A stretch of 64,000 bases of DNA from Amoebophrya sp. A120 (lineage: Eukaryota > Protista > Dinoflagellata). Of the stretch, positions 740 through 61,137 are shown in pieces. Under the pieces are notes generated by a model. The model was not told the origin of the DNA. It did no database searches and saw nothing but the letters and a program-made list of their open reading frames with translations. Every line of letters starts with the position of its first letter. Within the stretch, counting starts at the first letter, position 1. The stretch is taken from NCBI GenBank assembly GCA_905178155.1, contig CAJINV010000017.1:1534269-1598268 (forward strand), in the 5' to 3' direction. A program made the position numbers and the translations under genes.

Positions 740-3608
740 ATGTTGTCGGGCCCGATTTTTTTCAAAAAGTATCTGTCTGCAAAAAGATGGTGGAGTCGCC
801 AACTCCATCGGCAGATTCGAAGAGCACTACTGGGCGGGTCTTCGCATCATGGTTCACCCTCGCTGTGCGCTGACGCCGGCGGTAGCGCCTCACAGGTAAT
901 GGCATCTCACGAACGCCAGGTGCGGATGTATCACAGCCTCGCGGACGAGAATCCAGCAGATTGCCTCGCGGGTTTGAGATCACATACAGTGCCAGCCTCA
1001 GCGCTCTCTAGAGGGTTGACCGGCGTAGGAACCGTTGCAGGCAGGAGCACAGCGTCCTCCTCCAGGTCAACATCATCATCATCATCATCATCATGCCCGA
1101 GTGACGTCGTTCATAAAACCGGGAAGACGATGAGTCGTCAAAATCCACCAGCACGACAAGACCACGACCGCTACGAAAATCCCGATCCGCAAGAAGCCGG
1201 GATCACGGGCACGGCCTTGACGATTGGAGTCGTGTCCGCGTTGTGTTACGCGGTCGCGTCCGTGGTGTCCTTTTCATCATCTTCGTCCTCCTCGAAGAGT
1301 GCAAAAAGGTCAAGTTCCGCAGGGGACGATCGCAGCGCCAGAGGCGGAAAAAATACCGAAGTTCCCGCAGACAGCACGTCGCCCAGAATATCGCCACTGC
1401 CGCTTGCCAATCCGGAGGACGACCCTGAGAACTACGACTTCGTTGCCAAAGGCAGCATGCATTTTGTCTACCGCCTGAAGCAGGATATTAAAGGTCGTGA
1501 CGCAACCTCCTCCAACACCGTGCTTCGCGTCCGGAAGAACAGTCAGCAACAAGCGTTTTACGACGAGGAATTTCGACGGAGGGTTGTCAGATCGCTCTTC
1601 CCCGATTGCAACGTGCAGGTGCCGGAGATTGTATTAGCTTCGCCCGAGTTTCTGACCAGACTGGTCGAGCGAACGAGGGCGGCAGACAGTGCTACCTTCT
1701 CAGTAGAAGATGGAACTACAGCCAAGTCTTCTACAAACTCGGGCAGCTTGGCGTCATCTTCTTCATCCAAGAACGGAGATGATCTCATCCCGGTTTCTAA
1801 GCTCCGCGACGCAACCAGAACGTCCGCGTTAAGGAACACAAAATCTACTTCCGTGCTCACGATCGAGATCAAGCCCAAGTGCGGGTTGCAGGAGATCGAG
1901 ACGCTGCCGACGCGGTTCGAGATGCTGCAGTACCAGAAACTGCGGAACGGGGAAATCAGCCGAATCACGAGATATAATCCCGTCCAGATGTTCAAACCCA
2001 GGACGGCGGCCCGGGCGTTGCAAAACCTTTTCGACGAACCCCAGAATTTTCTGAAGGTGTTTCTCGACGGAAAATTGCTGTTCGGGGAGGAGCTGTTGCG
2101 AGGTAGTCCGACCGACAATACCGAATTAGATTCGAATCTTCACGACAATCTGATCGTGGATTTAGCCCGGGAAGCGGGGAAGGCTTTGAAAATATCGGGT
2201 GCGGGTGAAGGATCTACTGCTAGCGGACTTCCATCCGCGAAATCAGAGTTCCTTCTTGACCTCGTCCAGCAGGTCGTACAAGCGGACCCCGCTTGGCAAC
2301 GCATCCTCCACGTGCAGGCGTTCGCGGCCGGGCGAACCGCCGAATACGCCAACGAATTGCTCTATGGATGTGTTAGGATCGAAATCGTCAAAGTTGAAAT
2401 AGTTTGCCATGCATAAAAATGCAACGCAAAGATTGTCTCTATTGCAGAGGACGCAAGGGAGACAGATTGTAAGCCTTTTGAGAGGTAGAAAAAGAGCTGC
2501 TAAAGTAGCATGACAAAAGGAAAAGGCGCCGCCCTTACCCAAACAGCATGACAAACTGGATTTAGGTTCTAAGTTGTGCCCAAGTTTGTCATGCGCCACT
2601 TAGAAACTGGGCTTTCAACTGGCATCCATTTCATGCATGGCAAATTATTTCGACTTTGTCGATTTCGAACCTGACAGATCCATATACTCGAGCACTTGCA
2701 GCGGACGAAGACAAGCACGAGGAACATGATTCTTTCTGTCGACGACTACGCGGCTGCTTTACAAGCGTCCTATCCTGAGTAAAAACGTACCCACGCCAGA
2801 GTTGTAATGCAGATTTGCAAAGACAGGAAGACTTGTAATGCGCATCCCCTGGAGAGCCATTTCCAGTCGTGTTTTGGAATTTGTGATGCTTTGAACAGGA
2901 TGAGCAGCTGGATTTGTGATGCGGCTGCACTTGCTAACCTGCGCTACACTTTAGAGTGCAACTTGTCATGCGTGACTCACAAAACTCCTAGGTTTGTGTT
3001 GCAAAATCCCCATCCTGACTCTGGTGTGGGTACGTTTTTACTCAGGATGCGTCCAAATTTCGTCCCTTTCTGCCCGACGAGAGCGGGATGCGGCTCAGCG
3101 AGCGCGAGGGGCGAAAACTCGTGGAGCAGACGAAGAGGAGCGAATTTTTACCGGGGGAAAGGCAGTTTTCGCAGGCCTCGCAAACGGATTTGGAGAAACA
3201 GATCGTGGCGTACATTTGCAGGTATAATATGACTGTTGGTGTTGCTTCTTGTTGTAAATGGTACTGAATTTTTCATTTAGCATGACTTTCGTATAAAACT
3301 GCAACGGGTCGCTGTGAACATACAAAGCGGCATGAAGATGATGCTATTCCAATTTTCTCCTCGCCCATACCAGGTTCCTGCTCGGCCGCATGGCCATGGA
3401 TTTGAGCGTGATGATGAATTTCGTACACGCCGACGTGGAAAATCTGGAGCCTCTGCGCAAAGCGGGTTTCCGCCCGTTGCGCGGACAGATCTGGTACCGG
3501 CTGACTCTGGTCGATACGGATTCTAAGCCGTTGGACCGGTTACCAACGTATTCCAGGCAGCTGGCGGAGTACGAGAGACTCTGGAAAGGGATGCCGGGTG
3601 GCGGATAG
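740..3608 (+). CDS. IPK1: Inositol-pentakisphosphate 2-kinase; 4 exons interrupted by two introners and one GT-AG intron (3222-3373)
   Basis: Motifs FVAKGSMHFVY, VLRVRK, TIEIKPKCG, YNPVQMF, EPQNFLKVF. After splicing: AYICRFLLGRMAMDLSVMM (matches the FLxxxxxxDxSxM motif) and LVDTDSKP. The true start could be a downstream ATG. Confidence 0.85.
2363..2684. mobile_element. Introner E1 (322 bp, TIR about 52 bp) in IPK1
   Basis: Left end tatggatgtgttaggatcgaaatcgtcaaagttgaaat pairs with right end atttcgactttgtcgatttcgaacctgacagatccata. TSD tgctc/tactc. Removal gives ANELL-EHLQR in frame. Confidence 0.9.
2771..3049. mobile_element. Introner E2 (279 bp) in IPK1
   Basis: TIR tatcctgagtaaaaacgtacccacgccagagt / actctggtgtgggtacgtttttactcaggatg. 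TSD cgtcc. Removal gives AALQA-SKFRPF. Confidence 0.92.
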
Positions 3609-4720: not shown

Positions 4721-5902
4721 ATGTCCGCCGCCGCCTCGATCCGTACTTCGGTCCGGCAAACCCGGTTCTTCGCGACCACAGTGAAGCGCGCCGTTGACGC
4801 CCCGGCGCGGATCGAACTGAAGATGGGCGTAGGGCTTCGGAACCGGCGGCCGAAGGTATGGGACGGCACGGGGGAGGTGAACAGGTTGAAACCGGTGTAC
4901 TCGAAAGACCAAGTGAAGGAGTGGCGAGAAACCTTCAAAATGCCCAAGCTGCAGCATTCGCTGGGCAGACCGAGCTACAGTGACGACGACATATTAACTT
5001 GGAGAGCGGTCTTTGACAAGTATAACAAAGATCGTTGGACTGTTCGACAACTCTCGAACTACTGTAGACGGATCGAAATCGAATTGACTTTCCAAAACAG
5101 GTGCAGGCGTTTAAGTAGTGCACCTCAGTGCCACTGTCAACTACACGCTAGTGATTACTTATGTTGACCCCGTCCTCTTCGAAGTAAACATCGAACAAAT
5201 ATTAACTCAGGTACTGCAGTGGGCAATCCGGACAGATCAACCTGACAAACTTTCAGAAGCTACTGCAGGAAAAGTACCCCGACATTCCGGAGAAGGAACT
5301 TCCTTCGCTCGTCATGCGACACTGGAAGCAGTTCGATTTGGACGGGAACAACTTTATCGATTTCGGCGAGTTCTGCAAGGTGTCCTTCAAAGTGGACGTG
5401 TCCAGGATGCGGGAGTCGATTTTTGACGGCGGGAACAAGGAGAAAATGAAGGAAATTTTCTTGAAGTACCAAGAAGACGGCTACATAACGGAGACCGGCC
5501 TGTTTCAAATGATGGAAGACTACCGGTTCACCTGCGCAACCACGAGCGATTTGCGAAAGTTGTTGAGCCTGATTGACTATCCATTGCAAATTATGTCTGG
5601 GTCTAGAAGACGAGCGCAGGTTTGTCATGCTCAGCCAGCATGACTCTCAAGTCTGTCATGCAGGTTATGCAAAAGCCCCGACTTTCTGTCATGCAAAAAC
5701 CAACGTACTTTGTCAACACACAACACGTAGCAAGTCAGAAACTTGTCATGCCGAGCCGTCACTTGTGGCCTCCTCATGATTTGCCTCTCAGCGTCACAAG
5801 TTTCCAGACCCAGACACTTTTACAGTCCACATTTACAAGGACAAGGACAACATGCTGTCGGAGCTGGATTTTGAGTCCTGGGCAAAATCCGAAAAAGACT
5901 GA
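4721..5902 (+). CDS. Calmodulin-like EF-hand protein with a mitochondrial-type presequence; introns at about 5034-5224 and E3
   Basis: EF loops NKDxSGQIN, DLDGNNFIDFGEF, QEDGYITETGL and (after removing E3) DKDKDNMLSELDF. The N-terminus MSAAASIRTSVRQTRFFATT is Arg/Ser/Thr-rich with no acidic residues. Confidence 0.8.
5578..5831. mobile_element. Introner E3 (254 bp, degenerate member of the E9/E11 family)
   Basis: Ends tatccattgcaaattatgtctgggtctagaa / ttccagacccagacacttttacagtccaca. TSD ttgac/tttac. Removal restores the EF-hand LID-KDKDNML. Confidence 0.85.
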
Positions 5903-6489
5903 AAATTGATGATCTTCAGAGGAGTACTGTTTGATGTATTTGGTGGCGTGCAGCTGCATTCGCATTCTTTTTCTATGAATAAAACGAATGCTGCGCACAG
6001 TCTACTGGTAAGACACTGTTTCAGAAACTGCAAAAATTCTATACGATCATTTTGGTGCTGGTACTGGATCCCCCTCGTCGTGGTGTCGTGAGCAGAACGA
6101 CAGCAGAACATAAGCGATTTTGCTGGATCAAATCTGTGTCTTTAGAACTCTTATATTTTCCACCGGCTCAGGATCTTCGATATGTGGCGTTTCATTGCGG
6201 AAAACGAAACTAAAAAATACTCGTTGCCTTCAGTCGCATATGCAGGAGCCGTGCAGTAGAATAGATACTTTGCGATGATGTACTGACTTTCGAACGAGCA
6301 GAAGAAAGTAGTGCAGCGGCACAACACCAAAGATCAACGTGTAAACAAAGATAATTTCTGTACTATCTTGGTTACAGCTCTAAAATAAAATATTGGAAGC
6401 GCGTTTGATCCACAGGATTACCTTCTATAAGGAAAGAAGGAGTTTTCTGATGGCGAAAACGGAAAGGATGAAGATAAAAATCGTATAGG

Positions 6490-6680
6490 TCATCAAGGCT
6501 TGAAATCAAGATGGAAAATGAAAGAGACACGTTGTCAATTGAAGGTAACTGTAATTGACACCGCAAGGCTAAGGTTAACAGAAAACGGTTGCAACCCTCG
6601 ATGCCTTCATCCGGAGAATTCCATTCGAACAGACACAGGGAAATGTATGTACGTTGTTTTCGTGGTATTTTTTCCAGTGC
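6490..6680. repeat. Dispersed diverged repeat, copy 1 (copy 2 at about 9480-9680)
   Basis: Shared collinear blocks agatggaa..aagagacacg.tgtca, ccgcaagg, cagaaaa.ggttg, cctcgat, aattcca.tcga.cag. Confidence 0.6.
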
Positions 6681-13837: not shown

Positions 13838-15216
13838 ATGCCCGGCGAGCACGGTCCGGGGATTTGCAGTTGCCAGGACGAGCACAACGCCCTGGGGTTG
13901 ACGGCCAAATGGCTGAACCCCCACATCGCGCTGGACCAGGCCACGGCACTGAACGTGGACTCGGGCGACATCAAGCGGGTTTTGAAAAAATCCTACGACA
14001 ACCGGCTCCGGGATGAGCTCGGCTGCGTCACGACCCCGGACGACGACAACGAAATGCTGGTGTTCATCCCGTTCTCCAGTCCCGTCATGCTGCAATCCGT
14101 CTACATCATCGGCGGCGAAGGGTCCCAACACCCGCGGAAGGCGCGGCTGTTCGCGAATCCGCCCAGCAGCTGCACCGGGTTTTCGGAGTTCGCGGACCGG
14201 CAGCCCGAGCAGGCGCTGGACCTCGCGGAAGACCTCTGTGGGGCGGTCGAGTACCCAGTAAGGGCGACCAAGTTCACAAACCTGCAGCAGCTAGTCATAC
14301 ACTTTGAAACGGTATATGAGCTTTCATTTTTATTTTCTACGTAAAGTGCTTGCATTTTGTAAAGTTGCAATTAGTGGCGCCATGGAGTCTGCTCATCATC
14401 ACTGACGCCGGATAGAACGAAGCATCGTCTCGATGAACATAGAAACTCAAATTTACAATTTTGCGGTCGCTGCAGCACCCGCCCAAATAGATTGCCACTT
14501 ACAGCAGGACGGTGCAGGATTTCCGCGCACGGAGAAAGTTGTATTACCAGTTTCTTTGATGAGGCCTTGCCGAAGAAACGCAAACGACTTTCCAGAAAAA
14601 TCAGCGCCGCGTTGCTTCCGAGTCCTGCGTCTCTGGGATGAATACCGAACGCATAAAACTATCTGCGCCGCCCAGAAGTTTCTCATTCTCTGCAAGCTTT
14701 TCTAACGCGCTCTGCCCACGCCCAAGGCCTTCCCGCGCGCGCCCCGTTTCCGCATGCATTCGTGCTACAGCTACTTCTGTGTAAGTATCTATAAAAATAA
14801 CAAATCATCTGTGTAGCAGTAGCTGACAGGGACGTCTTGTGAATATTTAGAGCGGCCTTCATCTACACATTGTTTGATTGAGGCCAGACTCTTAATGAAA
14901 AAGATGAAAAACTGCTCCCCTCCACAAATGATCTCATTTGAGGCTAGAAGATTTATTTACCCACGATTATAGTGCCACGACTTATACATAGATTTTCATC
15001 CTTTTTCCAAATCTCGTACACCACTTTTACTGTCGAAAAACATCATAACTACAGGACGAGACAGCTGAGGAGAAAGAGGTATTTTGGATCGGCCTCAAGG
15101 GCACCCCAACCGACTACAAACGGCAAGCGGTAATCACCGTGTACGAGAGCCAGGCCAACGTCGCGGATCACGAAGCACCCGAGGAAGCGTTCGCTGCCAA
15201 CATGATGCAGCACTGA
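13838..15216 (+). CDS. PITH-domain protein (PITHD1-like), paralog 1; GT-AG intron 14312-15054
   Basis: LNPHIALDQATALN, DDDNEMLVFIPF, HPRKARLFAN, EYPVRATKFTNLQQLVIHF, FWIGLKG, VITVYESQANVADH. Confidence 0.9.
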
Positions 15217-16295: not shown

Positions 16296-17317
16296 ATGCC
16301 CCCTCCACCTGCCGTGGAGCACAGCCACGCCGCTTGTAGTTCCTCCGATGAGGAAGGTGAAGCGCTCGGCCTGAATATCACAGGAAAAAGTGTTAACGGT
16401 AACGGAATTTGTGATGCAGTATCGCACCACAAAACGTGCCCAAAATTGTCATGCATAGCATGCATGCTAAGCAAAATTTGTCATGCATATTTGCAATCCA
16501 TGAAAATAACCGTTAACGTTAACACTTTTTTGTTTGATACTGAACACCAAATGGCTCAACCCGCACATTGTGCTGGACCAGGCCACCGCTTTAAACGTGG
16601 AGAGCGGAGACATCAAGCGGGTCTTGCAGAAGCTTTACGACGACCGGCTTTGTGAAGACGAGGGAAAAGCTGTAGTCGCCACACCGGATGATGATAATGA
16701 GATGTTGGTCTTCATCCCCTTCTCTTCCCCCGCGCAGCTGCAATCCATTTTCGTTATCGGTGGGGAGGGGTCCCAGCACCCGCGGAAGGCGCGGCTGTTC
16801 GCGAACCCGCCCAACAGCTGCACCGGGTTTGCCGATTTTGAGGACCGCCAGCCGGAGCAAGTGCTTGACTTGGCGGAAGACGTCCGGGGCGTCGTCGAGT
16901 ACCCGGTAAGGGCGAACAAGTTTGCAAATCTCCAGCAGCTCGTCATTCACTTTGAGACGGTATCTATAACGCTGCGAAGGGTCTTGTTGCGTGTTGTTTT
17001 TCTGTGTCGAAGTTATCGACGATATCATGCGAACACCCATGTGAAAAGATTACAGGTTGGTACGCAGCAGAGCAGGTTTCGTTTCCAATTTAGCGAGACT
17101 AGCTCAACAACTTAAAAAACTTGTGATACGTCGAAAATCACACCACTGAAATCAGGACGACTCCGCCGATGAGAAGAAAGTCCTTTGGATCGGCCCTAAG
17201 GGCACCCCCACCGACTACAAGCGCCAAGCAGTGATCACCGTGTACGAGAGCCAAGCCAACGTCGCAGACCACGAGGCACCCGACGACGCCTATGCGGCGA
17301 ATCTCTTGCAGCACTGA
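16296..17317 (+). CDS. PITH-domain protein, tandem paralog 2; introner E4 plus GT-AG intron 16960-17155
   Basis: Very similar protein to paralog 1. The shared intron lies after HFET in both genes. Confidence 0.88.
16376..16539. mobile_element. Introner E4 (164 bp)
   Basis: TIR tatcacaggaaaaagtgttaacggtaacgg / ccgttaacgttaacacttttttgtttgata. Perfect TSD ctgaa. Removal gives ALGLN-TKWLNPH; the site is empty in paralog 1. Confidence 0.95.
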
Positions 17318-18459: not shown

Positions 18460-19440
18460 ATGCTTCGGCCCAGCTTGCTGTCTAACCTCTCGTCTCGTCG
18501 ATGCTTGTGCCGCGCACAAGCTCTCGCCGTCGCACTGCGTTTGCTTCTTGTGCTTGCGTTTTCATGGCCGAATCTGAGCAGCTTCGTGGCACTGGCAAGA
18601 ACCACTGCAACACCTAGCACACCGCCAGACAGGCCAGTCCAGGCCGAAGCAGGTGTGGAGAACGACGCAGCAGGTGATGGAGCGGGCCCGCACCCCGACG
18701 CCAAGCTTTCGAAGCCGAAGCAGGCGCCCGGCACGAGCAAGCACCGCCGGAAGAAAAAAGTCGTGAAGAGAAGCTATGTGACGCTGCCGGAGTTGCCGGA
18801 AGCCCTGCTCCCGCACAAAAAGGACCGGTATGGGCTAAGGGAAATGCTGAAAGTGGATCTTCGAGTAGCTGCACACGAAAGCAGCCGAGTAGCGTCAAAA
18901 CAAGTAGATGACGACGCCCCCGTCGCCTCCTGGATGGTCGAACCACGGTCACTTATCTCCTCATCGTCTACTCCGCCGAGCACGGACGGAGGTCTTGTCC
19001 CTCTCTCTACTTGGCAACAAATCATCGATTCCGAGGACGAGGGGCGGTTTCGCGACATTGTGGAGCAGTTCTACGAACGCACCTGCCGTGCTGACGTTTG
19101 GCACGCAATCGATGACAACGAGGACGGAATTTTGTCCCTGGACGAATTCAAACAAATGCTTTCGCAGGCTGAAGAACACTTTGCTGCTGCGATGAAATCT
19201 GAAGCAACAGCAGAACCTGCAATAAATGCGGGCACTACAACTGCCAAGAAAAGCGTCAAGAAATCGTCAAAACCACCTACCTCCGCAGTGTGGGCGTTTT
19301 GCTTTGAAGCGTTACACGCAGCTTTTTGGCGGTTGGAGTTACAGGAGCGGACGGTGTTGGAACCGGATGTGGTCATGAGGGAGCTGAAAACGTTTTTGAG
19401 TAAAAACACCGACTTCCTGGAAGCGAGAAGGCGGGTATGA
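18460..19440 (+). CDS. EF-hand protein with an N-terminal signal or anchor segment
   Basis: 326-aa ORF with hydrophobic LAVALRLLLVLAFSW and EF loop DDNEDGILSLDEF. Confidence 0.7.
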   Translation: MLRPSLLSNLSSRRCLCRAQALAVALRLLLVLAFSWPNLSSFVALARTTATPSTPPDRPVQAEAGVENDAAGDGAGPHPDAKLSKPKQAPGTSKHRRKKKVVKRSYVTLPELPEALLPHKKDRYGLREMLKVDLRVAAHESSRVASKQVDDDAPVASWMVEPRSLISSSSTPPSTDGGLVPLSTWQQIIDSEDEGRFRDIVEQFYERTCRADVWHAIDDNEDGILSLDEFKQMLSQAEEHFAAAMKSEATAEPAINAGTTTAKKSVKKSSKPPTSAVWAFCFEALHAAFWRLELQERTVLEPDVVMRELKTFLSKNTDFLEARRRV

Positions 19441-20688
19441 AAGGGAGCAGAAATAAAGTGATTCCAGTGCTAGTAGTGTTGAAGATGTGATGAAAAGCAT
19501 GACTTAATGAAGTAGAGTTTTGTGATGTGTGTATGCATTTCTGTTGATACAACATGACGAACATCAAGAGCTGCAGGCTCTTGTGGTAGTAAAGCGAGGC
19601 TGAACTTGATGTAGCTCCTGTTGACTTCTGCATCAGGGTAGTAAGTTGTGGTCTGGTGCAGCTGCGACCAAGATCAGCAACTGCATACCAACACAAGTCA
19701 CAAAACCAATATGTGACAAACACCACTGCAAGTCGCAACAAGAAACACTTTTTACCTGGATAGTGTGCATTCGATTCGTTGCCTGGCATCGTGGAAAAGA
19801 TGGAGGCAGCACAGCTGGAGGGAGCGGGCGGCTCCGAGAAAAGTAAGAACGATAAAGAGCAGGAACTGTAGAACCAAAGCACCGAAACATTTTGATGCAT
19901 ACTTTCCTGGAACTACACACTAGTACAGCTTCTATTGTCACAGTACCATTCACACATTGCGGAAGTCCTCGTGCAATTCCGAGCACGTCGCTGCTGAAAT
20001 GGCTGCGTCAAGCTGAAGTGGCTGCGTCCACCTGACAGTGGAGCAATGCTGTTTTTTCATAGCTGTGTCTGGTTTCCAAGACGATGAGAAATGAGATGTG
20101 AGATACACACACCAATCACAGACAAGACCAGCCGACGAGCGCAAAATTTATCCTATTGCTGTGGCTTGATATTGATCTAATCTGTCGTGTGTGTGGCCGT
20201 GTGGAGTTCTTTGTCTCTGAAGAGCGACGCTAGAATGAGCGATCCATGATGTGGCTTGCGCGGGAGGTGCGTTTGCGTAGGACCTCTTCATGCGGCCTAT
20301 AGTGCCAATATTGCGTACATCGCACCTAAAACTTCGGTGCAGTTTGATGATTCATTGTATTACGGCCATTTCCGTTTAAGCCACACCATGCAAAATGACA
20401 TGCAACTGTGGATGAAGAAGTAGGCCAGAGCTCCGAAGCCCTCAAAATCGACACCGCCGCAGCATCACTTGTGGTTGCGCCGGGTTCCACGCGGTTTGCT
20501 CGTTGCCGGCTTATTTCGAGGTCCAGCTAGTAGAACTCCGGTCGTCCAAGGGGGAAAACGAAAACCGCGGTGCTCTTGCGCAGCAGTAAGAATTGTGCGC
20601 CCGGTGCACACTTCTAAGCTTTAGTTATTTCTGGTGATCCACCTCCTCCTCCACGAGAAAGAAACCTTCGCGCGCGTCAACTTCCAAG

Positions 20689-23600
20689 ATGGGAGCGTGT
20701 CACTGCGGTGGTAGTAAGAAAAAGGAACCAGCAGATGATGGGACTGCAGCAACGCTAACGCAGTCAAACGCACCAACACTACCACCGCAAGCAACATCAG
20801 CGACTGCAGCGCAGGAACAAGAAGCTACAAACCTTCTTCCGGGAGAGAACTCAACATCACTCACCGCTCCGGCCGAAGAGGCTGGCGCTTCCACCGTCGG
20901 CCCTGCCGCAAATAAATCTTCAAAGTTCGACGAGGCAAAGCGGTCGACCTCCCGCGAAGAGGATGCTGCGTGGCTGCGAAAATATGGTCCGTCGATGGAG
21001 GCACTGGCGAAGGAGGTGCTCGCCGGTTTGGAGGATACCGAGGGACTACTAGTTTTCATGAATGATTCTACAGACAAAAAAGATGATAAAAACACTTCGA
21101 GCAAGGCCGCCAATAATGATGTTGACAATCAAGCACCAATACCACCGGCAAAAACTTCCAGTAAAACATCAACAAACTCCCTGACCCCGGAGACAGACTA
21201 CCTGGAACTGCTACTGCAGCTTCTGACAGAGGACGCGGACGAAATTTTCTACGCGGTCAGAACCACCGAGGCGCTCGAGGAGGCTGTGGAGAGGTTGACG
21301 CGGATCGGGACACTCTTGATCGACAAGCAGTTCCTGCAAATCGTGAAGTTGAACCGCGTGCTGCGCTTGTCCGAGGCGAAATACAAGATCATCGAACTGG
21401 AAAACTTCCTCGCAAACTACAAGTCCGAGCTCAAGTTCGAACCCATCAGCCCGAATCCGTCGCAGCCAAAGTTGGTAATCATCGCGGAAGAGCAGGAGGT
21501 ATCCCGTGGAAGCGAGGCTGTGCCATCCTTTTCGTGTGTATTTGCGTCCATTGAGAATTGCAATTGCATCAACTCGAGTGGTGGTGTCTTTGTTTTTCAA
21601 TGAATGAGAAAGAGAAAAGAGCTGCCGAGCCCTCCAGCTCGATCTCATCATCAAAGAGGTGCCATTTTTCTCATCGTATGAATAAGTACATTTGCCTTTG
21701 CATGATCTAAAAGTGCAATTCGTACGATATGTGCGACGAGCGATGTTGGCGTTTTTGCAATGCATAAATCGACAGCAGTCCGAACTCGGGCATAAACCCG
21801 AAATCCGAGAAACACGGCCCGACGGAGAAGGAAGACGACGGAGTTTTGCGGGTGCGCACAAGCTATGCAGGGCAAACACCTGGCCTCCGTGTTGTTGTAG
21901 TGTTATTCTAGATTAGAAGCAGGAACGTCTTTGTTGAAATGCAAGCAAACGGGTTTGGATGCGGATGAGTGCGCACCATCGGGAGTTTGAAACTTAATCT
22001 GATCCTGTGAAGAGGAGTCGCGATACACTTTGCCAGAGGTGATATGAGGAACTCCTAGTGCCTTATGCCAAAACAGCGCGCAGCTGAAAGTGAAACCGCA
22101 ATTGATTCAGACTTCACACCCAACAGCATTAATACACAGCCTTGTTGCACTGCATACATGAAAGTTGACTGGCGCGGATCAGGAAGTCGTCGTGACCAAG
22201 GAAATCCGGCCGCCGCAGGGCGCTTACAGCAGCAGCGTAAGTGCGACGGCGAACAAAGCACCAGCTGACGGAACAACTGGCGCTGTCTCACCCTCTTCTG
22301 AGGCGAATACAACAGACGGAGGCGCGACGACCAGTGCTGCTCCTAATGGAGCAGTTCCACCCGCGACCACTTTTCTCGATCCCGCCATTGGAGGGGGCGG
22401 GAGCGGCGGCACGGGCCCGTTGCTGAAGGAACGGACGCTGTCCCGGGACAGTAATCGATCGCAGAACAGCACGGGGAGTCGGGCGAAGGTGCAGGTTCTC
22501 GTCCCGCCCGCGCACGCCGAGATGGCGCAGTGTCTGTGCGACTACTTTCACGAGTGCATGTCGGGCAAATATAAAAAAATCGTCGACTCCATCAACTTTA
22601 CGCTGGAGCGGATGACCGCGGCGCTGGGAGCGCTGTACAAGGAGCAGCGGTTGGCGGACTACGTGCCGTTCCACCTGAAAAAGAAGGACCACGTATGAAT
22701 TGCAAAAGTATCGTACTCGTATAAATGCTTTACAAACTTCTTCAGCATGAGAAAGAAAATTTGTGATGCGGATTTGCCTTAAGAGCAAGATTTGCAATGC
22801 ATGTTTGCAATTACTACGAGCGCGATACTTTTGCACAGGATACCACGTGTACGACGTGGACGTAGATTTCGACATCCGCATCAACTACGCGGCAGACAAG
22901 GGAAAAGTCTATGCGTACTTTGACGCGAGCCCGATTCCGATCCCAATCCAGCACATTGCCAGCCTGGCGCACGAAGTAGATCGTATGATCGGTTTGGAAT
23001 TTCAAAGAGGTCGTCAAGCTCAACTAAGAAAGCTCCACCTCATTTCGTTAATCTAGCGCTACTCCTTGGCTCTTCGCACACATTTGTCTCCTGCTTGCGG
23101 CAACACAAACGACCAAAACAGAGGGAAATCCATCGGTCGGCGTCAACGCCATAGAATTTTTGCTTTCTCACTGGGCGGGTGCGGCGGGAAGATGGAGGTA
23201 GAGCTTGAGTGAGGCTTGCCGGAAGTTTTGAAGTTTTTTGCCTGCATACTTCTCTGGTCAGAGCTTGTTCCCTACGTTCCGAGCATCGACATCGTGAAAC
23301 AGTGGTCCTTCGCAGACAGGGTCCACAAAGTGACCATGGCGCCGCCGATACCGTGGTCCAGAAACATCGAGTGCTACATGCACCGCTCGCTGTGCGATTT
23401 AATGGAACTGGATGCCACAAATTCGGTGCTACAAATCCAGCCAAAACTGTACCAACCGACCTGGATGCCGTCGGATTGTACTGATTTTCATTGTAGTGCA
23501 GTTTGTAGCATCGTGGTGGAAGAACAGACTCTATCGTCGTGAAAGTTGTGCCTTCGAATGAACAATGGCCGAGCAGCTCTGTTGCTACAGAGGTGGTCCT

Positions 23601-25650
23601 GGTCCTCGTGGTTCTTGTTGCAAAACAAGACGATCATATTAGTTCTCCTTTTTAATTAAAAATCCAAATTCACAACCCGTTTACACGACGACACGCGTCT
23701 TCTACAACACAACGACTCTACAAAATCATCCAGGTACCCAGCAGCTGAAGGAGCGGTACCACTACCAGGCCGGCATTGCGATTTTCGAGGCGAGTCCGAA
23801 ACCCTACCCCGCGATCCGTCAGGCGGTCCAGGAAAATCCCGAACGGGACTTCCCCTGGCGCGACATCCGAATCCCGGGCGTCCCGAAGGACAAGCAGAAG
23901 AAAGTCTATCACAGCAAAAAGTGTTAACATTAACGGAATTTGTGATGCAGCAAGCAGCAATGCATCACAAAAGATGCCAAGATTTGTAATGCATAGCATG
24001 CATATTGGGCGACATTTGTGATGCATGTGCAGGTAGATGAGTTGTCGTATAGGATGAATTGCACCCAAATACGTATTAGGAATCCAGCAAAGCTTACATC
24101 GTATCGTATTGCGAAAGCTCGAAAACAGCGAGCAAAGCACTTTACCAGCCAATTTCTTCAAAAGCGAAAATGGCGGACCCTGTGTCGTATTTGCCCAAAA
24201 ACGAAGGCAATAGCTTAGCAGCTGAATTGTCACAAAGCGAAGCAATTCAGCGCAGAAACACAATGCAGCCTATCTCGGTCGATCGGAAATATATTTGCCG
24301 GCAAAAGCCAGTGACAAGCTTTGAAGCAAGAAGACAGCAGTCCACGAAAGTGGAAGTGCCCGACACGCTTCCAGGCGCCTCCGATAGAAGCGGTCGCTCT
24401 ACGTCTACAAGGCCGGTCGGCGGTCGCGCGGAAGGGCTGCGCAGGCGCTTGGCATATGGCGCGACTGGCAGTGTGCGTGCCGACGTGCTCCGCATAGCAG
24501 TAGCACTGCTTTAAACTTAAAGCAAAAGCGAAAATAGGCAGCGCGCGCGCCCTAATTTCGCATCGCGCCAGCATGCGAAAGAGGGCCCGGGGGGGGCGGG
24601 GGGGGTACACAGCCGCCCCCAGGCGTTATCTATGGGCTATGCCAGGCGCGAGGCGTGCCGAAAAATCATAATGTTGGGAGGCTTGCGGCAATTTGCTCGG
24701 AACGCTCCACCGCCACACGCGCAACCATGCCCAGGGCCCAGGAGAGCACTCCTTGGCAGTACCCCCGCAAACTGGCTGCGGTAAAGCGCAGCGCCTGCAG
24801 CTTTTTACCCGTTCCGCCATGCTTTTGCCCTCGAACAAGTGCGCGCGGAAGCCTAGGGCCCCGAGCAATCAAGCCTGCGCGGATCAGGTGATAATCACGT
24901 GAGGAGTCACGTGATAATCACATGATTTTGGCGGCCCATAAGCCATTTTGAGTTGTCTTCATCACGTGATAATCACATGATTATCACGTGATGACGACCC
25001 CGGAAAGGCGACGGCCAAAATTTCAAGATATGACGCTCCCCCCGTCATACGTGGAACCCAAAGCGGCAAAACAGTAACGATTCACGAAGAAAACGGAGCA
25101 AAGACGAAAGTCGAACGTATGAGCTATATTGTGACAATTCAGATCGCGCCAGAAACTACACAACAAAAAGTCAAAAAAGCAACTCAGCATGGAGCAATTC
25201 AGATTACTGCATGCATGCCTGCAATCTGTGAAAGCCGTTAACTTTAACACTTTTTCCTGCGATAAAGTCGCCCGGTTTAACACGGAGTGTTTCTTGATCA
25301 TCGGCACACCGTACTTGATCGCGAACCCCCATTTCGACCCGAAAAAGCCGGCCACGTTCGGGGACGACAACACAAACCCGAAGGCGCTCGAGGCGTTCCG
25401 GGCGCGGGGGATGGTGGAGGTGGACTGGAACCCCTGGGTGCGAACGATGTGCCCCAACGTGCTAGTGCGGTACATCGCGAAGAAAATTTGCAGCCAGTTG
25501 CTAACAAAAATGATGGAGGTGCACAAGAATTTCGACCAGAGCGAGCACAAGCGGCGGCTGGAGCAAGATGCGGAAAGGAGATTCGTTCTCGGTCAGCTAG
25601 CCGACCGGGTACAGGAATATTTAAAGAAGCGCTTCAAGAAGGTGAAATAG
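20689..25650 (+). CDS. Multi-exon protein with an N-myristoylation/palmitoylation-type start and a probable START/SRPBCC lipid-binding domain
   Basis: Starts MGACHCGGSKKK. Approximate exons 20689-21498, 22181-22693, 22848-22982, 23253-23425, 23734-23906, 25270-25650. Segments IASLAHEVDLWSELVPYV, PPIPWSRNIE and GIAIFEASP resemble protist START-like proteins. Some junctions are approximate. Confidence 0.6.
22694..22842. mobile_element. Introner E5 (149 bp)
   Basis: TIR tatgaattgcaaaagtatcgtactcgta / tacgagcgcgatacttttgcacaggata. Perfect TSD ccacg. Removal gives KKDH-VYDVD. Confidence 0.9.
22984..23248. mobile_element. Degenerate introner E6 (265 bp)
   Basis: tatg...cata ends, eroded TIR, eroded TSD gatcg/cttct. 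Removal in the 4|1 register gives HEVD-LWSELVPY. Confidence 0.55.
23907..25264. mobile_element. Introner E7 (E4 family, 168 bp host) carrying a nested insertion
   Basis: TIR tatcacagcaaaaagtgttaacattaacgg / ccgttaactttaacactttttcctgcgata. Perfect TSD aagtc. Removal gives QKKV-ARFNTE. Confidence 0.9.
24028..25211. mobile_element. Non-coding 1184-bp element nested in E7
   Basis: Ends TGCAG...CTGCA flanked by a tgcatg duplication (24022-24027, 25212-25217). Subtracting it leaves a host collinear with E4. Confidence 0.75.
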
Positions 25651-37821: not shown

Positions 37822-37972
37822 GCCTCTGCGAATTTAGAAAAGTGGCCCTCGCGAATTTCGCGCGAATTTAGAAAAGTGGCCCTCGCGAATTTCGAAAGCC
37901 CGACCTGAAATTGCGTTTTTTTCTAAATTCGCGCGAAATTCGCGAGGGCCACTTTTCTAAATTCGCAGAGGC
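37822..37972. repeat. Inverted repeat with arms of about 54 bp built from GCGAATTT motifs
   Basis: gcctctgcgaatttagaaaagtggccctcgcgaatttcgcgcgaatttagaaaa (37822-37875) is the reverse complement of 37919-37972. Confidence 0.85.
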
Positions 37973-39448
37973 CGCTTTTGCAAATTCGCACGGGCCACCT
38001 TTGTAAATTCGCAAATCGAGAATACCGCCCTGATTGGGCATGCCTTTAAACGCTTAGCCCGATGGTGCTCTGGTGTTCCAACTTTAGCAAAATTCAAAAA
38101 TTACATCTGAAGCCGCATGGTATGACGAGAAAGCGGCTGCGATTGTGCGTGACGGCGTTAAAAGTTTCGCATCTGGCGCAAAAAGCTGCTGCTCATAATT
38201 GACGCCGTGGCAGTTTCTAAGCCGGCGCCTGTCGCATCGAAAGCGAAGAGGCCCCCTCGATGGTGAGGCACGGGAAACGCAGCAAATTTCCTTGCGTCCC
38301 TCGGAAGGGCATGGGACCGCGAACAGGGTGGCCACGTGATTGGCCACCAGACGTTGGCGCTTGGATTTGCGCTGAAATTCGCTTGAAATTCGCGCCTGCT
38401 CTTTCTAATGGGTGCCCAAGCTCTAAGCGAAGCGGTACATAGACGCCGGAATCGAGCTCTCCTGGAGGAATTCGCACGGTGAAACAGCGGAGGAATTCGC
38501 AAAGTGGTACATCGAGAACCCGCGACCCAGCGCCCCCGACAAGCGGCAGCAGGAACACTGCCAGGAGATTGTGGACGCGATAAACATGAAAAAGCGTAGC
38601 CGAGACCTCGGGCGGTCTTGCAGCAGTAGCTCAGCGAATTAAAAATTGATCCATGATTCCATTACACCAGGGGCGATCGATGCGGTCAGGGTTTAGAAGG
38701 AAAAAGGGCTTCTAGTAGTAGCGTCGATCTCTTCAATCAAAACTGAAAGTAATTCCGTCAGCACATTCGTTCTCTGATCCACAAAAGCGTGTCGGTCTAT
38801 TCTAGGTAGTTAGTTGATCGCATTCTTGATTTTTACAGCTCAGATGACGTCGGAAGAAACGACACAGCAAAGTGTTGATATCGACGACGCAAAAGCCGTA
38901 AGTATGAAAGTCAATTGAGGTGTGGGCTATCCCCATCCTTATCCTATCCTATGGTTCGATCCCGGTCCCGTACATTGTTCCTGTGAGGAGGTGATCCCTT
39001 GTTTACTCGAAGTTGTGTGTCCGACCGGAGCGAAAGTGAGTGTGTAAGTGAGTGCTAGAAGAGGGTCCTGCCTAGCACGGCGCATCGAAGATTTTCCACC
39101 CTGTCATCGTGACGCATATTTCACTTCCTCGAGAGAAATTCAGAAAGAGAGGACAGCACTAGGAGTTGTGGTTTTCCAGGCATGTGGTCCTAAGCGTTAA
39201 TGACTACATCTTCTTCGTCGCCGGTCATAAATACGTTGTGTATCTGTTGACGAGGGCAACGAACAATCTCGATACGTTACCGATATCATGTTGCATTTGC
39301 ATTTTATCTCCCCGTTATTTGTCTAGAAGTGAAAGTGAATTACATAGATCCGTCTCGCATTGCTCCTGCATTACGACTGAAAAATGAGTTCTCGGAGTCG
39401 GAGCCACAAGAATCATGTCGCGTGTTTGAATTTAATCTTTTCTTCTAA

Positions 39449-51500: not shown

Positions 51501-54500
51501 GTAGAGAGAGCACGTTTGCAGTCCCGAGAATCAGTGTGGACGACCCGCGCTATTCCGCCATCGATAGCGTGGTGACAGTCGACCCATACGGGACAACTAG
51601 GGACTCCGCCGCGCAAATGAACCACCTGCCGAAAAACTACAGCGAATCCAACCGGAGTGGCTCGTCGGCTGTGCTACATGATCCAGCACACCTTCCCCTG
51701 TCGCAGCAGCAACCGCCTTCGTCCCACTACGTCTCCGGTACCGGGGGGCTGACCGATGACGAGTTGATTCCAGTCAACCGGGATGATAAACAAGCCAACG
51801 CAAACCGATCAGAGAATGGCATATTTGAGGACTTTTCCTACACACTGCAAATCAACACAGACGGGAATATTTCTAGCAGGACGACGACAAATCAAAACGC
51901 GATCATGCTAGAGCAGCAGAATAGTCCTCCTGACCATCAAGAAGAAGATCAGTTTTTGCACAAGCTGAATCTCCGGTCCCCGACCTCGGAAGCGTCGTTT
52001 GTCCTCCCGACACCGATTGGACCTGGAGCTCCTTCGCAGCCAAAATTTGTCGTGTTAGATTTTGAGCAAGTACAGAACATCGACTCAACCGCTTGCGTGT
52101 CCCTGGCGAGTATGAAAGTCTCTTTAAAAACCTCCGACGTGATGGTCTCCAACTCGCGCTTGCACTTCGTCTATTGCGGAATAAGGTCGGATTCCCTTCG
52201 GGAGCTGCTACAGGCAAACAACGCACTGAACAGCAACGAGGACTACGAGTTTGGTGCGTTGGAAGATGCCTTGAACTTCATCGAAGAGATGATTCTGAAC
52301 CACCACTACGAAAACTTAAGCCTGTATGAGGTGGAGATGAACTACACTGGCAGTGGTATATTAGCAGGAGGAAGTACTACTTCTAACCCGCCGCGCTCGA
52401 GTCTTGCGGCGTTTCACAAGTCAAGAAACGCAAACTTTGCCCTGACGCTCGAGGAGATCTTGTTGGAGTACTTTCGGCAGGACCCGACTGTGAACCCGCC
52501 GAACATGTGGTCTCCAAGGGTGACGGCGAGCTCGACTTACCGGCCGCAATTTTACCCCGCTTCTGCGTCTGCTGGCTACGAGCCACCGAAGCCGGTTTTT
52601 ACTAGTGACACAGGAGAGGGACGAGATGACACGACGGCAACTTCTGCAGGAGCGCAGCTAAAGAGTGCAAAGCAAAACGCCGCCAGCACGACCGAGTCGG
52701 AGTTCGTGCAATCTGGACAGAAAACCGCTTCCTTTCCGGACGAACCAGGAGTCGAAGTTGCGTTAACCAAGGCGACGTCGAGCACATCCAGCTCCTCATC
52801 GCAGCCGATGAGTCGGCAACTGCTGGTGCTGGCCGATAATTCGGAACTACAACATGAGCCTTTCTCCCAAGACTACACGAGCTCGAGCACGGCGCAGCAC
52901 CAGCAGCAGCATCCCCCACTGCTGGGGATGAAGCCGCAACACCAAATCTCCCTCACCGATATCCGGTCCCACGACTTCCTAACCGGGTTGCGGCAGATCG
53001 CCAAATCCTTCACGGTGACCTTAACACTACCCGCGGGCGCCGTCCTCTTTCGGTCAGTATCAAATGCAAAAATGTCTGGGTCTGGAAGAGTCATGCTGTT
53101 TTTGCATCACGCAGAAGGTCTGGCATGGAAGCTGTAGCATCACAGGTTTCGAAAAGCTTCCGCAATGCCGAATCCGCATGACAAATCCCCCACTTTGGTG
53201 ACAGAAAGTGGGCAGCTTTTGCTACCTATGCATCAGAGATTTTTCTGTGTGCTGAAATGCGCATCACAAGTTTGTATTCTTCCAGACCCAGACACTTTTA
53301 CATTTGATAGTCAGAGGACGTCTGCAACGCGGTGTTTTTCGTCAGTAAGGGTATCCTGAGTAAAAACGTCCCCACACCAGAGTTGTCATGCAAATCTGCA
53401 TGCCAAAAAAGTTTCTCATGCTGAGACGATTCCGGTTTATGATCCCAGTCCCCCCTCCCACCCTTTGCTTCTGTTGCAGAATAAGTCAAGCTGAGTCACT
53501 ACGGTTGCCGCGCACAAATTAAGCCTTTAAGTTGTCGCTGTGCCCCAGGTGGGTTGCCAGTCAGCAGTGCCAAACAACTGGTCTATGGTTTGACAACTGT
53601 GACCCGCTCGCTTGCCTTTTTCGTCCGTGCCGCAGGTAAGGCGCAAACGGTCCAGCCTCCCCTGTCTGGGCGGGGCTGCGGCTTAGGGGAGAGTCTCGCC
53701 CCTTCACCCAAAGGGGTGCGTCGTCTCTTCCGTGAGAGCAAAAACGTAGGGCGTAAAATGGGTCGGGTCCTGGATCATTCTGTATGTTGGGCTGTCGCGC
53801 TCGGCTTGCTGGCCGGGCTGTACCGATCAGGTGTGGTGGGTAGCTCCCGACTGGTTGGTACTTTTCTTGGGGCGACTTGCCGTGGTAGCGCTCGGCTTTT
53901 GTATGATGAGGTCGCCGAAAGTGCTTCCTCGCCCACCCCCCGGGGAGGGGATCCTTGACCTGTGGCGCTGGGAGCGGGTGTCCACTACATGATGATGATG
54001 ATGCTGAGCCCCATGAAAGGCATTTTCTAATCGTGTTTTGGGATTTGTGATGCTATAATCAGCATGATGTGCTAGATCTGTGATGCTGCTGAACTACCTA
54101 AACAGGATTACATTACAAGGACAAACGTGTCATGCGAAACAGCCAAAGCTGGTTGATTTGTCTAGCAGATTTCCCATCTTGACTCTGGTGTGGGTACGTT
54201 TTTACTCAGGATAAAGGGGGTGGTAGAGGTATCCGCGTGGCGCTCGTTGAAGAACAACGCGGCGAGTTTGATCAAGAACGATCCGACGCTAGGGGTTGCT
54301 GGTGGCGCAGGTCCGTTTGGAAATATTAGAGCAGGACCAGGAGGAGCTACAGCATCTTCACAGTCGCATCTTCAAGATCGACAGACGATGCCAACGGTCG
54401 TGCAACACCAATCTACTTCTGCACGGCAGGAAACGCTGAAGTCCACGACAATTTCCCCGACCCTGTCCTCCTGGCTCCGAACGCGTTCGATCCAATGCCG

Positions 54501-55094
54501 GCCCGGTGCGCTGCTGGGCAACACGGCGTATCAAATGCAAAAATGTCTGGGTCTGGAAACTTGTGATGCTGTGTGGCGTATCATGAGGAGGCCACAATTG
54601 CTGGCTCAGCATGACAAGTTTCTGAGCTTCTAGGTGTTGCCTATTCTGCATGACAAACTACGTTTCTGCATGACAGAAAAGTGGGGCGCTTTGGTAATGT
54701 GCATGACAGATTTAAGAGTCATGCCAGACAAGCATGACAAACTTGCATTCTTCCAGACCCAGACACTTTTACATTTGATACGGCGTTTGCCTACCCCAAA
54801 AGGGAGATGGTGTACGGGTTTGACGCGGGTTATCCAGAAAAAAACACCCATCCCCATCCAATTTGTCATGCAAAACCCGCATAAAGTGCAGTGTTTGTCA
54901 TGCTAAAAATGGATGGGGATGGGTGTTTTTTTCTGGATACGAGTGCGAGTGAGGATGTAGGTGCGGTAGTATTCAAAATCGATCGGGAGGCCATGCGCCG
55001 GATGGAGCTGCGAAATCCTAATTTAGCATTATTGCTGCACAAAGTCTTCCTTCAAGACATGTGCTACGACGCGATCAGAGACTTGGTTGACTGA
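48507..55094 (+). CDS. SulP/SLC26 anion transporter with STAS and cyclic-nucleotide-binding domains; five introners and one GT-AG intron (50303-50456)
   Basis: TM domain (IGQVQDVGLIFL, LPLPVVGGYLGYIGWFCI, GSYIFSQT), STAS (QLKGYIFFGS, FVVLDFEQVQNIDS), and a cNMP domain reassembled after splicing (AGAVLFRSEDVCNAVFFVSKGVVEV...PGALLGNTAF...IDREAMRRMELRNPNLA). Confidence 0.92.
49825..49934. mobile_element. Introner E8 (110 bp)
   Basis: TIR tattccctgaaaattgaccgtccccatcca / tggatggggatggttaattttcagggaata. Perfect TSD catcg. Removal gives WFCI-AAGLTI. Confidence 0.93.
53058..53309. mobile_element. Introner E9 (252 bp)
   Basis: TIR tatcaaatgcaaaaatgtctgggtctggaa / ttccagacccagacacttttacatttgata. Perfect TSD gtcag. 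Removal gives LFRS-EDVC. Confidence 0.95.
53352..54213. mobile_element. Introner E10 (E2 family, 279 bp host) carrying a nested insertion
   Basis: TIR tatcctgagtaaaaacgtccccacaccagagt / actctggtgtgggtacgtttttactcaggata. Perfect TSD aaggg. Removal gives VSKG-VVEV. Confidence 0.93.
53426..54000 (+). mobile_element. 575-bp SINE or truncated non-LTR-like element nested in E10
   Basis: 8-bp TSD atgctgag (53418-53425, 54001-54008), 3' (ATG)n tail, no TIR. 862-575-8 = 279 bp, the length of E2. Confidence 0.8.
54529..54780. mobile_element. Introner E11 (252 bp, E9 family)
   Basis: TIRs identical to E9. Perfect TSD cggcg. Removal gives LGNTA-FAYP. Confidence 0.95.
54831..54939. mobile_element. Introner E12 (109 bp, related to E8)
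   Basis: TIR tatccagaaaaaaacacccatccccatcca / tggatggggatgggtgtttttttctggata. TSD cgggt/cgagt. Removal gives FDAG-ASEDV. Confidence 0.93.
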
Positions 55095-59349: not shown

Positions 59350-60659
59350 TAAAGAAGATGGTGTAGCGGAAGTGTATCCGCAAAGCTGCACCGCCCCTGA
59401 TTTCTTTCAAAAATGTGTATATCCTTTTCTTGATCCTGCCTAGGCGAAGAGGACGACCTGTACGCGACAGCGAGCGACAAGATCAAAGCACTTGTCTCTA
59501 TATGACACAAGAAGATAAAAAGAACTTCAATAATTAGCGCGCGACTCTTCTCAAGAAATCACGTTTGACGGATTTAATACTGCAGAATTCTATCTGCATT
59601 CCCGTTCGACTGAGTTTACCACCAATTTTAACATCTATTCTATACCAGATCACCATGGTGACTGAGATTTCTTAAACCGACTAAAAAAGCTTGTTGCGAC
59701 AACATCGTATCGCAAGCAGAAACAGTATTCTCAACAGTACGAAATTGACAATGATAGATGGGGTTAGGGAGTGAATCTTTGACCCTGTCAATAAAGACCT
59801 AGAGACAGGCCAGCGACCGAGCCACCAAATTACGTCTATACCCGCGCCTACCCAGATCTAGTATTGCAGAATATGCCCAACACCAACTTAAAGTTTATCG
59901 AAACCCTACAACGAAGCTGTTTCCTACACAGAAACGACCTTCACGACGAAATTTTTGGCTTCGACCACTGCAGCGGACGTGGTGGGTGGAGCTAGGAAAG
60001 CTTTCTCCTTTGCTTGCGACCGAATCTACACCCCCCAGGACGACCGACGTCAAAGGTGCTTCTACACTTCTAGACTTACCTATCAATCCCTACTGACCGC
60101 AACTAAGCAACGACTTCGCCGTCCTTTATTGCTGACTCGAGAAGATGAGAAGGGCTTCGGCTTGTTGTGCACAATACAGCTGATATCAAATTTGGCATTG
60201 GTGTCAGGGAAGCAACGCGAACATTTTTTCCGATTTCGTGCTCCTGCTGGTGCAAATTCACCGCGGGAATCGAAACATATTGCAAGCCTGTATTAGATGG
60301 CGCGCACGCGTTCTTGTCAACTACGAAGTCTTATCCCAGTTAAGTTTATAAGCTGGGAGAGGGGAGAGCCCGGGAGAGGCTGGGAGAGGCTGGGAGAGCT
60401 TCCGCAAATTAGAAGGAACAGCGCGACTCGTTTTGTAAATTTGCTTCAGGCTCGATGGTATGATGTCTATTCTACTGCAGTTCTTTTTATATATATGTAA
60501 GCGGTTTGGACGGCGCCCCTGTGGCGTATTTCTATTTGTGACTACTCGGCGCAGTTTTTGGGATGGCGGATGCCGCCGACAGGTGGCATCTAGGGGGCGA
60601 AAAATTCCTGCATGCGTGTCCTCCACGCGGGCGGCCCCTGGGGCGCTGCTGTCGTTATC

Positions 60660-61137
60660 CATCAGGGAAAGTTGAAGCGGGCACTTCGATTTTCCTTCGA
60701 TGAGGGAAAGCTGAAGTGGCCAATTCAAATTTCCTTCGATGAGGGAAGGTTGAAGTGGTCACTTCAATTTTCCTTCGATGATGGAAAGTTGAAGTGGCCA
60801 CTTCGAATTTCCTTCGATGAGGGAAAGTTGACGGGGCCATTTCAAATTTCCTTCGATGAGGGAAGGTTGAAGCGGTAACGTCGATTTTCCTTCGATGAGG
60901 GAAAGGCGAAGTGGCCACTTCAAATTTCCTTCGAAGAGGGAAAGTTGAAGCGGCCATCCCAAATTTCCTTGCTTCGATGAGGGAAAGTTGAAATGGCAAC
61001 TGCGAGCTTCCTTTGATGAGGGAGCGTTGAAGTGGGCACTTCGATTTTCCTTCGATGAGGGAAAGTTGAAATGGCCATTTCAAATTTCCTTCGATGGGGG
61101 GAAGTTGAAGTGGCCACTTCAAATGTCCTTCGATGAG
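60660..61137. repeat. Tandem array of 12 x 39-bp self-palindromic units
   Basis: Consensus gatgagggaaagttgaagtggccacttcaaatttccttc, whose core ttgaagtggccacttcaa is a perfect palindrome. Units abut with no spacers. Confidence 0.92.

Follow-up and report, generated by a model that had tools for sequence, protein, structure and literature searches.

More than 60% of Amoebophrya introns are non-canonical (Farhat et al. 2021, PMC7789003). In the accessible parts of that article, the introners of strain A120 are described as having inverted repeats that start with TAT, followed by 7 nt and an A-stretch, and flanking direct repeats of 3-5 nt (5 bp in the legend of Fig. S19), with a terminal inverted repeat (TIR) or hairpin of 8-20 nt as the criterion; 15% of the A120 canonical introns carry the same organisation of direct and inverted repeats, and introner border positions are called 'variable' or 'unknown' (PMC7789003). 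As far as the accessible sections of the respective papers go, the introners of Gozashti et al. 2022 (PMC9860276) and IE1 of Micromonas (PMC11282704) take their donor and/or acceptor, wholly or partly, from the target-site duplication (TSD) and leave the mRNA length unchanged. Intermediate introns of euglenids have a hairpin and one or both ends canonical, and a conversion between intron types has been proposed for them (Milanowski et al. 2016, PMC4770533, accessible in part); they carry paired nucleotides at fixed offsets (+4..+6 with -8..-6, versus +2..+4 with -7..-5 in A120), but differ from A120 in lineage and motif, and their 5′ GT/GC is ascribed there to a purine preference and not to kinship with conventional introns. 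Both the co-option of TSDs and canonical introns laid out like introners have thus been published, and a lone relic intron adds little to them; new here are a splice register bounded by transcript contigs and the worn GT-start introns beside one likely relic.

We analysed a stretch of 64,000 nucleotides of Amoebophrya sp. A120 (contig CAJINV010000017.1, positions 1,534,269 to 1,598,268), hereafter the window, in which all gene models built lie on the + strand. The gene concerned had been named IPK1 by the first-pass annotation, which a domain search corroborated (PF06090, E = 6e-33); its four-exon model encodes 571 aa with zero internal stops and reproduces exactly the 248-nt spacer of the transcript-type contig X1, and a search of proteins 173-553 aa long, a range that excludes the 571-aa length itself, gave no relative at E ≤ 0.001. 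The third intron of this gene (hereafter the IPK1 intron, Table 1) reads, as first described, GCAG at 3218-3221, G-TAT at 3222-3225, ATA at 3367-3369 and CCAG/G at 3370-3374, a slash marking the splice site. A 152-nt skip occurs here in four of four transcript-type contig sets, which come from one sample and whose RNA nature is a guess; it reads 3218 to 3371 with five letters ambiguous, and gives GT..AG at cut +3. In the DNA-type run X5 the intron is retained, with one unbroken contig spanning 3023-5749 and a single-copy depth of 39.9, the bins with intact elements reaching 2,707 to 126,756. It is a genuine intron, spliced out of the IPK1 transcript assemblies with GT-AG ends. Compared with the A120 introners of Farhat et al., it has no inverted repeat; the accessible text of that article (PMC7789003) holds no discussion of TIR-less relics.

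Table 1. Coordinates of the IPK1 gene, its third intron and the introner-type introns of the window (cut, number of left-TSD bases kept in the transcript)
Feature	Position	Strand	Evidence
IPK1 (inositol-pentakisphosphate 2-kinase) gene; exons 1130-2361, 2689-2769, 3054-3221, 3374-3608	1130..3608	+	PF06090, ORF, transcript spacer
Introner E1 intron; TSD TGCTC and TACTC; left base 2 kept in RNA, so cut at 2 or later	2362..2688	+	contig piece ends 2359, length sum
E2 intron, from a high-copy introner; TSD CGTCC without mismatch, strong hairpin	2770..3053	+	sequence, depth, folding
IPK1 intron; GT-AG, 152 nt, third in IPK1, phase 2	3222..3373	+	sequence, transcript-assembly joint 3218 to 3371, reading phase
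TAT…ATA core of the IPK1 intron; 147 nt (intron = core plus 5)	3223..3369	+	sequence
Putative 5-bp duplication, left copy GCAGG; bases 1-4 exonic, base 5 the donor G	3218..3222	+	
Putative 5-bp duplication, right copy CCAGG; acceptor AG at bases 3-4, base 5 in the exon	3370..3374	+	
GCATGA at 3280 and 3330, TGATGC at 3339, inside the IPK1 intron	3280..3344	+	
Introner E3 intron; TSD TTGAC and TTTAC; cut 3-5	5577..5835	+	transcript-type contigs
GT..GT intron; introner geometry, decayed TIR (6 of 17); cut 4-5	19435..19766	+	transcript-type contigs
GT..TC intron; 272 nt, ATA at -7..-5, TSD 1 of 5, left arm weak, right strong; cut 4-5	21499..21770	+	transcript-type contigs
CT..TG introner intron; TSD CAAGC and CATGA; cut 3-4, excluding 5+0	21863..22160	+	transcript-type contigs
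GT..TC intron; TSD GATCG and CTTCT, left arm lost; cut 2-4, excluding 5+0	22983..23252	+	loose contig end, 22982 to 23253
TT..AG introner; intact (perfect) TIR; right TSD differs at base 3, giving an AG acceptor under 4+1	54830..54943	+	sequence and ORF only

The IPK1 intron shows neither the TIR nor the genomic repetition of introners, and is therefore classed among the canonical introns, with introner ancestry likely. Only 2 of 17 arm positions match, 67% of canonical introns score equally well end to end, and its fold is no better than that of shuffles (z = +0.74, versus -8.0 for the neighbour at 2771-3049), in agreement with the earlier statement that no TIR survives. TAT and ATA stand at the introner offsets; the left arm is missing its A-run and scores under all 230 predicted introners, and the right arm, with C-ATA and a shifted T4 run, scores 0.7, between the canonical and introner classes, above 92% of canonical introns yet below 93-94% of predicted introners. 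T-runs of 4 or more, as found here, occur in 0 of the 18 other GT-AG introns of the window, in 15 of 94 canonical introns of the wider loci described below and in 158 of 230 introners. BLAST against 693 kb of introner-rich loci gave no match at E < 1e-3, and four transcript-supported old introner-type introns likewise had none. The GCATGA copies that had been taken for introner remnants are indeed present, but the motif is not diagnostic of introners, since it is enriched in ordinary introns as well: GCATGA/TCATGC, whose density in introners is about 4 per kb on each strand, occurs 8 times in 5.1 kb of the ordinary GT-AG introns of the window versus 8 times in 21.5 kb of intergenic DNA (p = 0.006, roughly fourfold denser), and on both strands in the loci. 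Only 2 of 35 old introners, and 7 of 132 canonical introns, carry the motif at least as densely as the IPK1 intron. That GCATGA serves as a strand-specific branch signal was ruled out, the canonical introns having 28 versus 30 copies on the two strands. Given the motif density, introner remnants may be present in more introns than one would judge from the intron ends.

The flanks GCAGG and CCAGG are identical at 4 of 5 positions, which 10% of permuted canonical ends equal; a match of at least 4 of 5 is also found in 3 of the 18 other GT-AG introns of the window and 12 of 94 in the loci, AG/G being ordinary splice consensus. The chance of ATA at -7..-5 in at least one of the ten GTAT-AG introns of the window is 33%, and that of ATA together with a flank match of at least 4 of 5 is 0.4% per intron, or about 4% per window with ten such introns, with the T-run and motif density uncounted and the features chosen after the intron was seen. 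Such a joint geometry speaks against an ordinary spliceosomal intron in which GTAT and CAG/G are normal consensus and ATA fell at -7..-5 by chance, an explanation that the missing TIR, hairpin and family match would suit and for which ATA at the same offset in 3 of 68 non-GTAT introns also counts. The ordinary-intron explanation is further favoured by GTAT being the commonest native donor, used by 10 of the 19 GT-AG introns of the window and by 49 of 117 predicted GT-AG donors in the loci, where GTAC comes next with 32 (81 together). GTAT and GTAC interchange between L027 and L019, two loci holding about 93% identical copies of an intron-dense gene (a minus-strand element call near 8921 of L019 has no called counterpart in L027), and GTAT is kept in both paralogues of a PITH-domain gene, whose introns are unalignable (34% of shuffles score as well). 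An exon of a PITH-domain gene of the window is 100% identical to a protein of Amoebophrya sp. A120 and has an A25 relative at 71%. In addition, a search for snRNP27 detected it in neither A120 nor A25. Yeasts that have lost this protein tend towards +4U donors, and +4U sites are tied to loss of SNRNP27K or METTL16 in Saccharomycotina, according to the accessible part of Parker et al. 2023 (PMC10581693); by analogy, the link may extend to Amoebophrya with its favoured GTAT and GTAC. From the shared count, the swaps, the persistence in the PITH gene and the undetected snRNP27, GTAT is read as a native donor that the TAT end of the element resembles, and probably not as a scar of past introners.

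The IPK1 intron had been credited with fixing the splice register, which it cannot do, because any number of left-flank bases from 1 to 6 may be kept at its junction and position 4 is chosen only by assuming GT-AG. The proposed register itself, in which four bases of the left duplication and one of the right stay in the transcript (4+1), drew its support from the neighbouring introns instead. Each of the seven introner-type junctions read from transcript-type contigs removes exactly 5 bases in addition to the TAT…ATA core. The left-TSD bases kept number 3-5 at 5577, 4-5 at 19435 and 21499, 3-4 at 21863 and 2-4 at 22983, the last range coming from a loose end at 22982 in contigs X3 and X4 that continues at 23253; the E1 junction allows a cut at 2 or later, and those at 16375 and 22693 are fully ambiguous. 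As 19435 and 21499 exclude 3+2, while 21863 and 22983 exclude 5+0, 4+1 alone is common to all, and 4 is the sole value that meets all six informative junctions, giving an intron of the form N-TAT…ATA-NNNN. Presuming one common register, for no single junction pins 4, we consider it very likely that the introners share this cut. The TSD mismatches at 2363 (position 2) and at 5578 and 54831 (position 3), and the G at left base 5 at 22984 (G versus T; probably the element E6, a guess), are as the first-pass annotation gave them.

Published numbers bear on the register as well. In Table S4 of Farhat et al. (accessible in part, PMC7789003), the nine commonest A120 non-canonical end pairs all have T second (GT, CT, AT, TT) and none begins with TA, so that the register is implicit there, an invariant second-position T fitting N-TAT. 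The nine A25 end pairs all start with TT and the A25 repeats begin with TTA, and the top non-canonical donors of both strains, TT in A25 and NT in A120, would keep the canonical +2 T and +3 A. If the introners were instead cut variously within the duplication, e.g. some 3+2 and some 5+0, the fact that each junction merely bounds the cut would be accommodated, as would the legend of Fig. 3 in the same article, which calls the sites variable relative to the hairpin; but one value fits six of six informative junctions and the second-position T does not vary, and the absence of a single register is thus unlikely. Whereas the accessible text of Farhat et al. leaves the borders undefined and does not spell out 4+1, the junctions here fit that one register; it is stated in none of the titles and abstracts found on Amoebophrya, introners and splice sites, and the published figures (Figs 3 and S19-S25) may show it.

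On the acceptor side, ATA stands at -7..-5 in 14 of the 16 non-GT-AG introns of the window (the other two having ATG and ACA), but in 1 of its 19 GT-AG introns, namely the IPK1 intron; from this difference, ATA plus four bases acts like a 3′ signal when AG is absent, and we infer that it marks non-AG acceptors. Three transcript-supported introns, at 19435, 21499 and 22983, start with GT and do not end with AG, with worn TSDs (1-3 of 5) and TIRs of 5-7 of 17, and retain ATA exactly at -7..-5 and an introner-like right arm; they are possible intermediates. One of them, 21499, had been listed among canonical GTAT introns and proved to be GT..TC in the transcript-type contigs, while 10809, 14312 and 16960 from the same list were transcript-confirmed as GT-AG, all without ATA; those at 56679, 57731, 58810 and 62572, predicted from sequence, also have no ATA at -7..-5. 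Around 16960, X1 and X3 contain a second joint at 16904-17155 (skip of 250, GT..AG) with just 28 bases on one side, which points either to alternative use of an upstream donor or to contigs misjoined with the paralogue at 13838-15216.

To set the IPK1 intron among its relatives, 71 loci were found in one assembly by a scan with the E2 terminus, of which 67 (634 kb) were used after four redundant ones were dropped; they are selected for carrying one introner family, and contain near-identical families (up to 98%). Their introns are predictions without RNA, from our own gene model, which has no ATA, TIR or TSD term for GT-AG introns and recovered 32 of 33 hand-curated introns of the window, an optimistic figure because it was trained there. 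Since a self-trained version performed worse (29 of 33, with 16 extra calls on the window), the calls common to both models were used, filtered by score (e.g. 370 or 520 of 776). Among strong-TIR pairs the TSD is 5 bp long in 176 of 293, versus 5, 4, 2 and 1 for 3, 4, 6 and 7 bp. Of 235 young TSDs, 72 have G at base 5, 18 have AG at bases 3-4 and 7 read NNAGG, from which the target sites appear close to random, unlike those of the Gozashti and Micromonas introners as described in the accessible sections (PMC9860276, PMC11282704); with such a near-random target site, most A120 copies would be spliced without GT-AG and a few percent born canonical. L003:4525-4809 is such a copy, reading GCAG/GTAT…ATA-GCAG/G with a TIR of 17 of 17, i.e. 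the GCAGG site of the IPK1 intron duplicated around a perfect element, and L027:3637-3916 (- strand), shared with L019, is a half-decayed analogue (TSD 4 of 5, TIR 6 of 17). Sharing the layout of the IPK1 intron, these two introners, one born canonical and one half decayed, are a further point against an ordinary spliceosomal intron, which we regard as a possible but somewhat unlikely origin.

We favour, with a probability of about 0.6, the reading that the IPK1 intron is an old A120-type introner that has had GT-AG ends from birth through duplication of a GCAGG site; introner ancestry in itself is rather probable. An element of this type would have inserted at GCAGG and created the 5-bp duplication, and under 4+1 any NNAGG target would automatically yield G-TAT…NNAG/G, a form in which intact young introners exist. 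With both ends canonical, the hairpin may have become dispensable and its arms may have drifted, which would leave what is seen in the IPK1 intron, i.e. no left arm, C-ATA with a T-run at the right end, and no family likeness. The spliceosome would read TAT at +2..+4 as the donor, with +1 free, and the TAT end would correspond to the +4-pyrimidine donors (GTAT and GTAC) of ordinary A120 introns.

The first-pass annotation had instead seen a conversion of introner into intron. Its introner origin is favoured by our data, but no conversion by mutation is called for: CAG/G is present in the exonic copy of the duplication from the outset, so no GT or AG had to be acquired, and, the exonic bases showing an NNAGG site, the intron, if an introner, was born canonical. 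As a general fate of A120 introners, a non-canonical start followed by gain of GT/AG by mutation and then loss of the TIR would be consistent with the GT-start non-AG introns at 19435, 21499 and 22983, in which the right arm is the better one, and with the TSD change that creates AG at 54830. Two signals from the loci point the same way: in a post hoc subset with a TSD match of 3 or less, which may include mis-called ordinary GTAT donors, elements with +1 G have a poorer TIR match than those without (10 versus 30 elements, p = 0.018), and the intronic copy shows a shift towards A/T in 13 cases versus 2 at TSD base 3, the -2 position (p = 0.007, without correction for the five positions). Against it stand the exonic AG and G of the IPK1 intron itself and a series of null results in the loci, which are not final since the predictor under-calls elements lacking both arms. 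In 352 predicted introns with introner geometry (634 kb), TIR decay was unrelated to +1 G (13 of 112 versus 21 of 240, p = 0.44), so that the expected correlation with GT/AG acquisition was not found, and in 352-360 predicted elements TIR and arm asymmetry were unaffected by +1 G (p = 0.44 and 0.61) or AG (p = 0.21). Arm loss under symmetric scoring was balanced and unrelated to G or AG; a GT-gated loss of the left arm, hinted at by three introns of the window, was not reproduced (13 left-lost with 2 G, 12 right-lost with 2 AG). Aged elements were not enriched for +1 G (75 of 248, 27 of 69, 12 of 43) or AG (22, 6, 3), and there was no directional gain of G at TSD base 5 (6 versus 3) or at base 4. 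The stepwise route is therefore quite improbable, and the claim that old introners lose their TIRs upon acquiring GT/AG was largely unsupported in these 634 kb; the proposed general rule of conversion has gained little.

The excess of ATA that the same proposal expected in GTAT introns met a similar fate. ATA was found at -7..-5 in 7 of 49 predicted GTAT-AG introns of the loci versus 1.8% at other offsets, and four of the seven are intact introners with perfect NNAGG duplications. Once intact introners were removed, 3 of 45 TIR-less GTAT-AG introns versus 3 of 68 other GT-AG introns carried it, which is not a significant excess (p = 0.68); a partial ATA match in the TIR-less GTAT introns gave p = 0.07, and their free bases 1-2 gave no evident relic TSD signal (17 where 13.1 were expected, and 10 where 10.6 were).

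Several other repeats were observed in the window. An inverted-repeat pair at 5937-6333 (18 of 22) without TSD lies downstream of an EF-hand gene, and the transcript contig 5835-6594 traverses it unspliced. The elements at 23907-25264 (1358 bp) and 53352-54213 (862 bp) are long forms of short introner families with extra internal sequence, and the interior of the 862-bp element has 91-98% identical copies in the loci. Two long intergenic stretches hold a 39-bp tandem array (60614-61176) and a 33-bp repeat with apparent inverted copies nearby (37828-37990), respectively.

More tentatively, the transposon introns of Amoebophrya, tens of thousands in number, might be spliced in a single fixed register, with an nTAT donor whose +1 is free and an acceptor that a hairpin ruler sets four bases beyond ATA; the ends of the transposon would mimic the +4U donor that is favoured once snRNP27 and U1 are lost (the TTA ends of A25 would keep +2 T and +3 A), and +1 G would free old copies from the hairpin, so that introns would grade step by step into ordinary-looking ones like that of IPK1. 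How the more than 60% non-GT-AG introns of Amoebophrya are removed is an open question in the accessible part of Farhat et al. (PMC7789003). With a fixed register of N-TAT…ATA-NNNN, spliceosome models can be tested against exact ends and gene finders can call introner introns, as with the 32 of 33 curated introns of the window recovered by the window-trained model; such a register also suggests that the donor bases at +2..+4 are still read.
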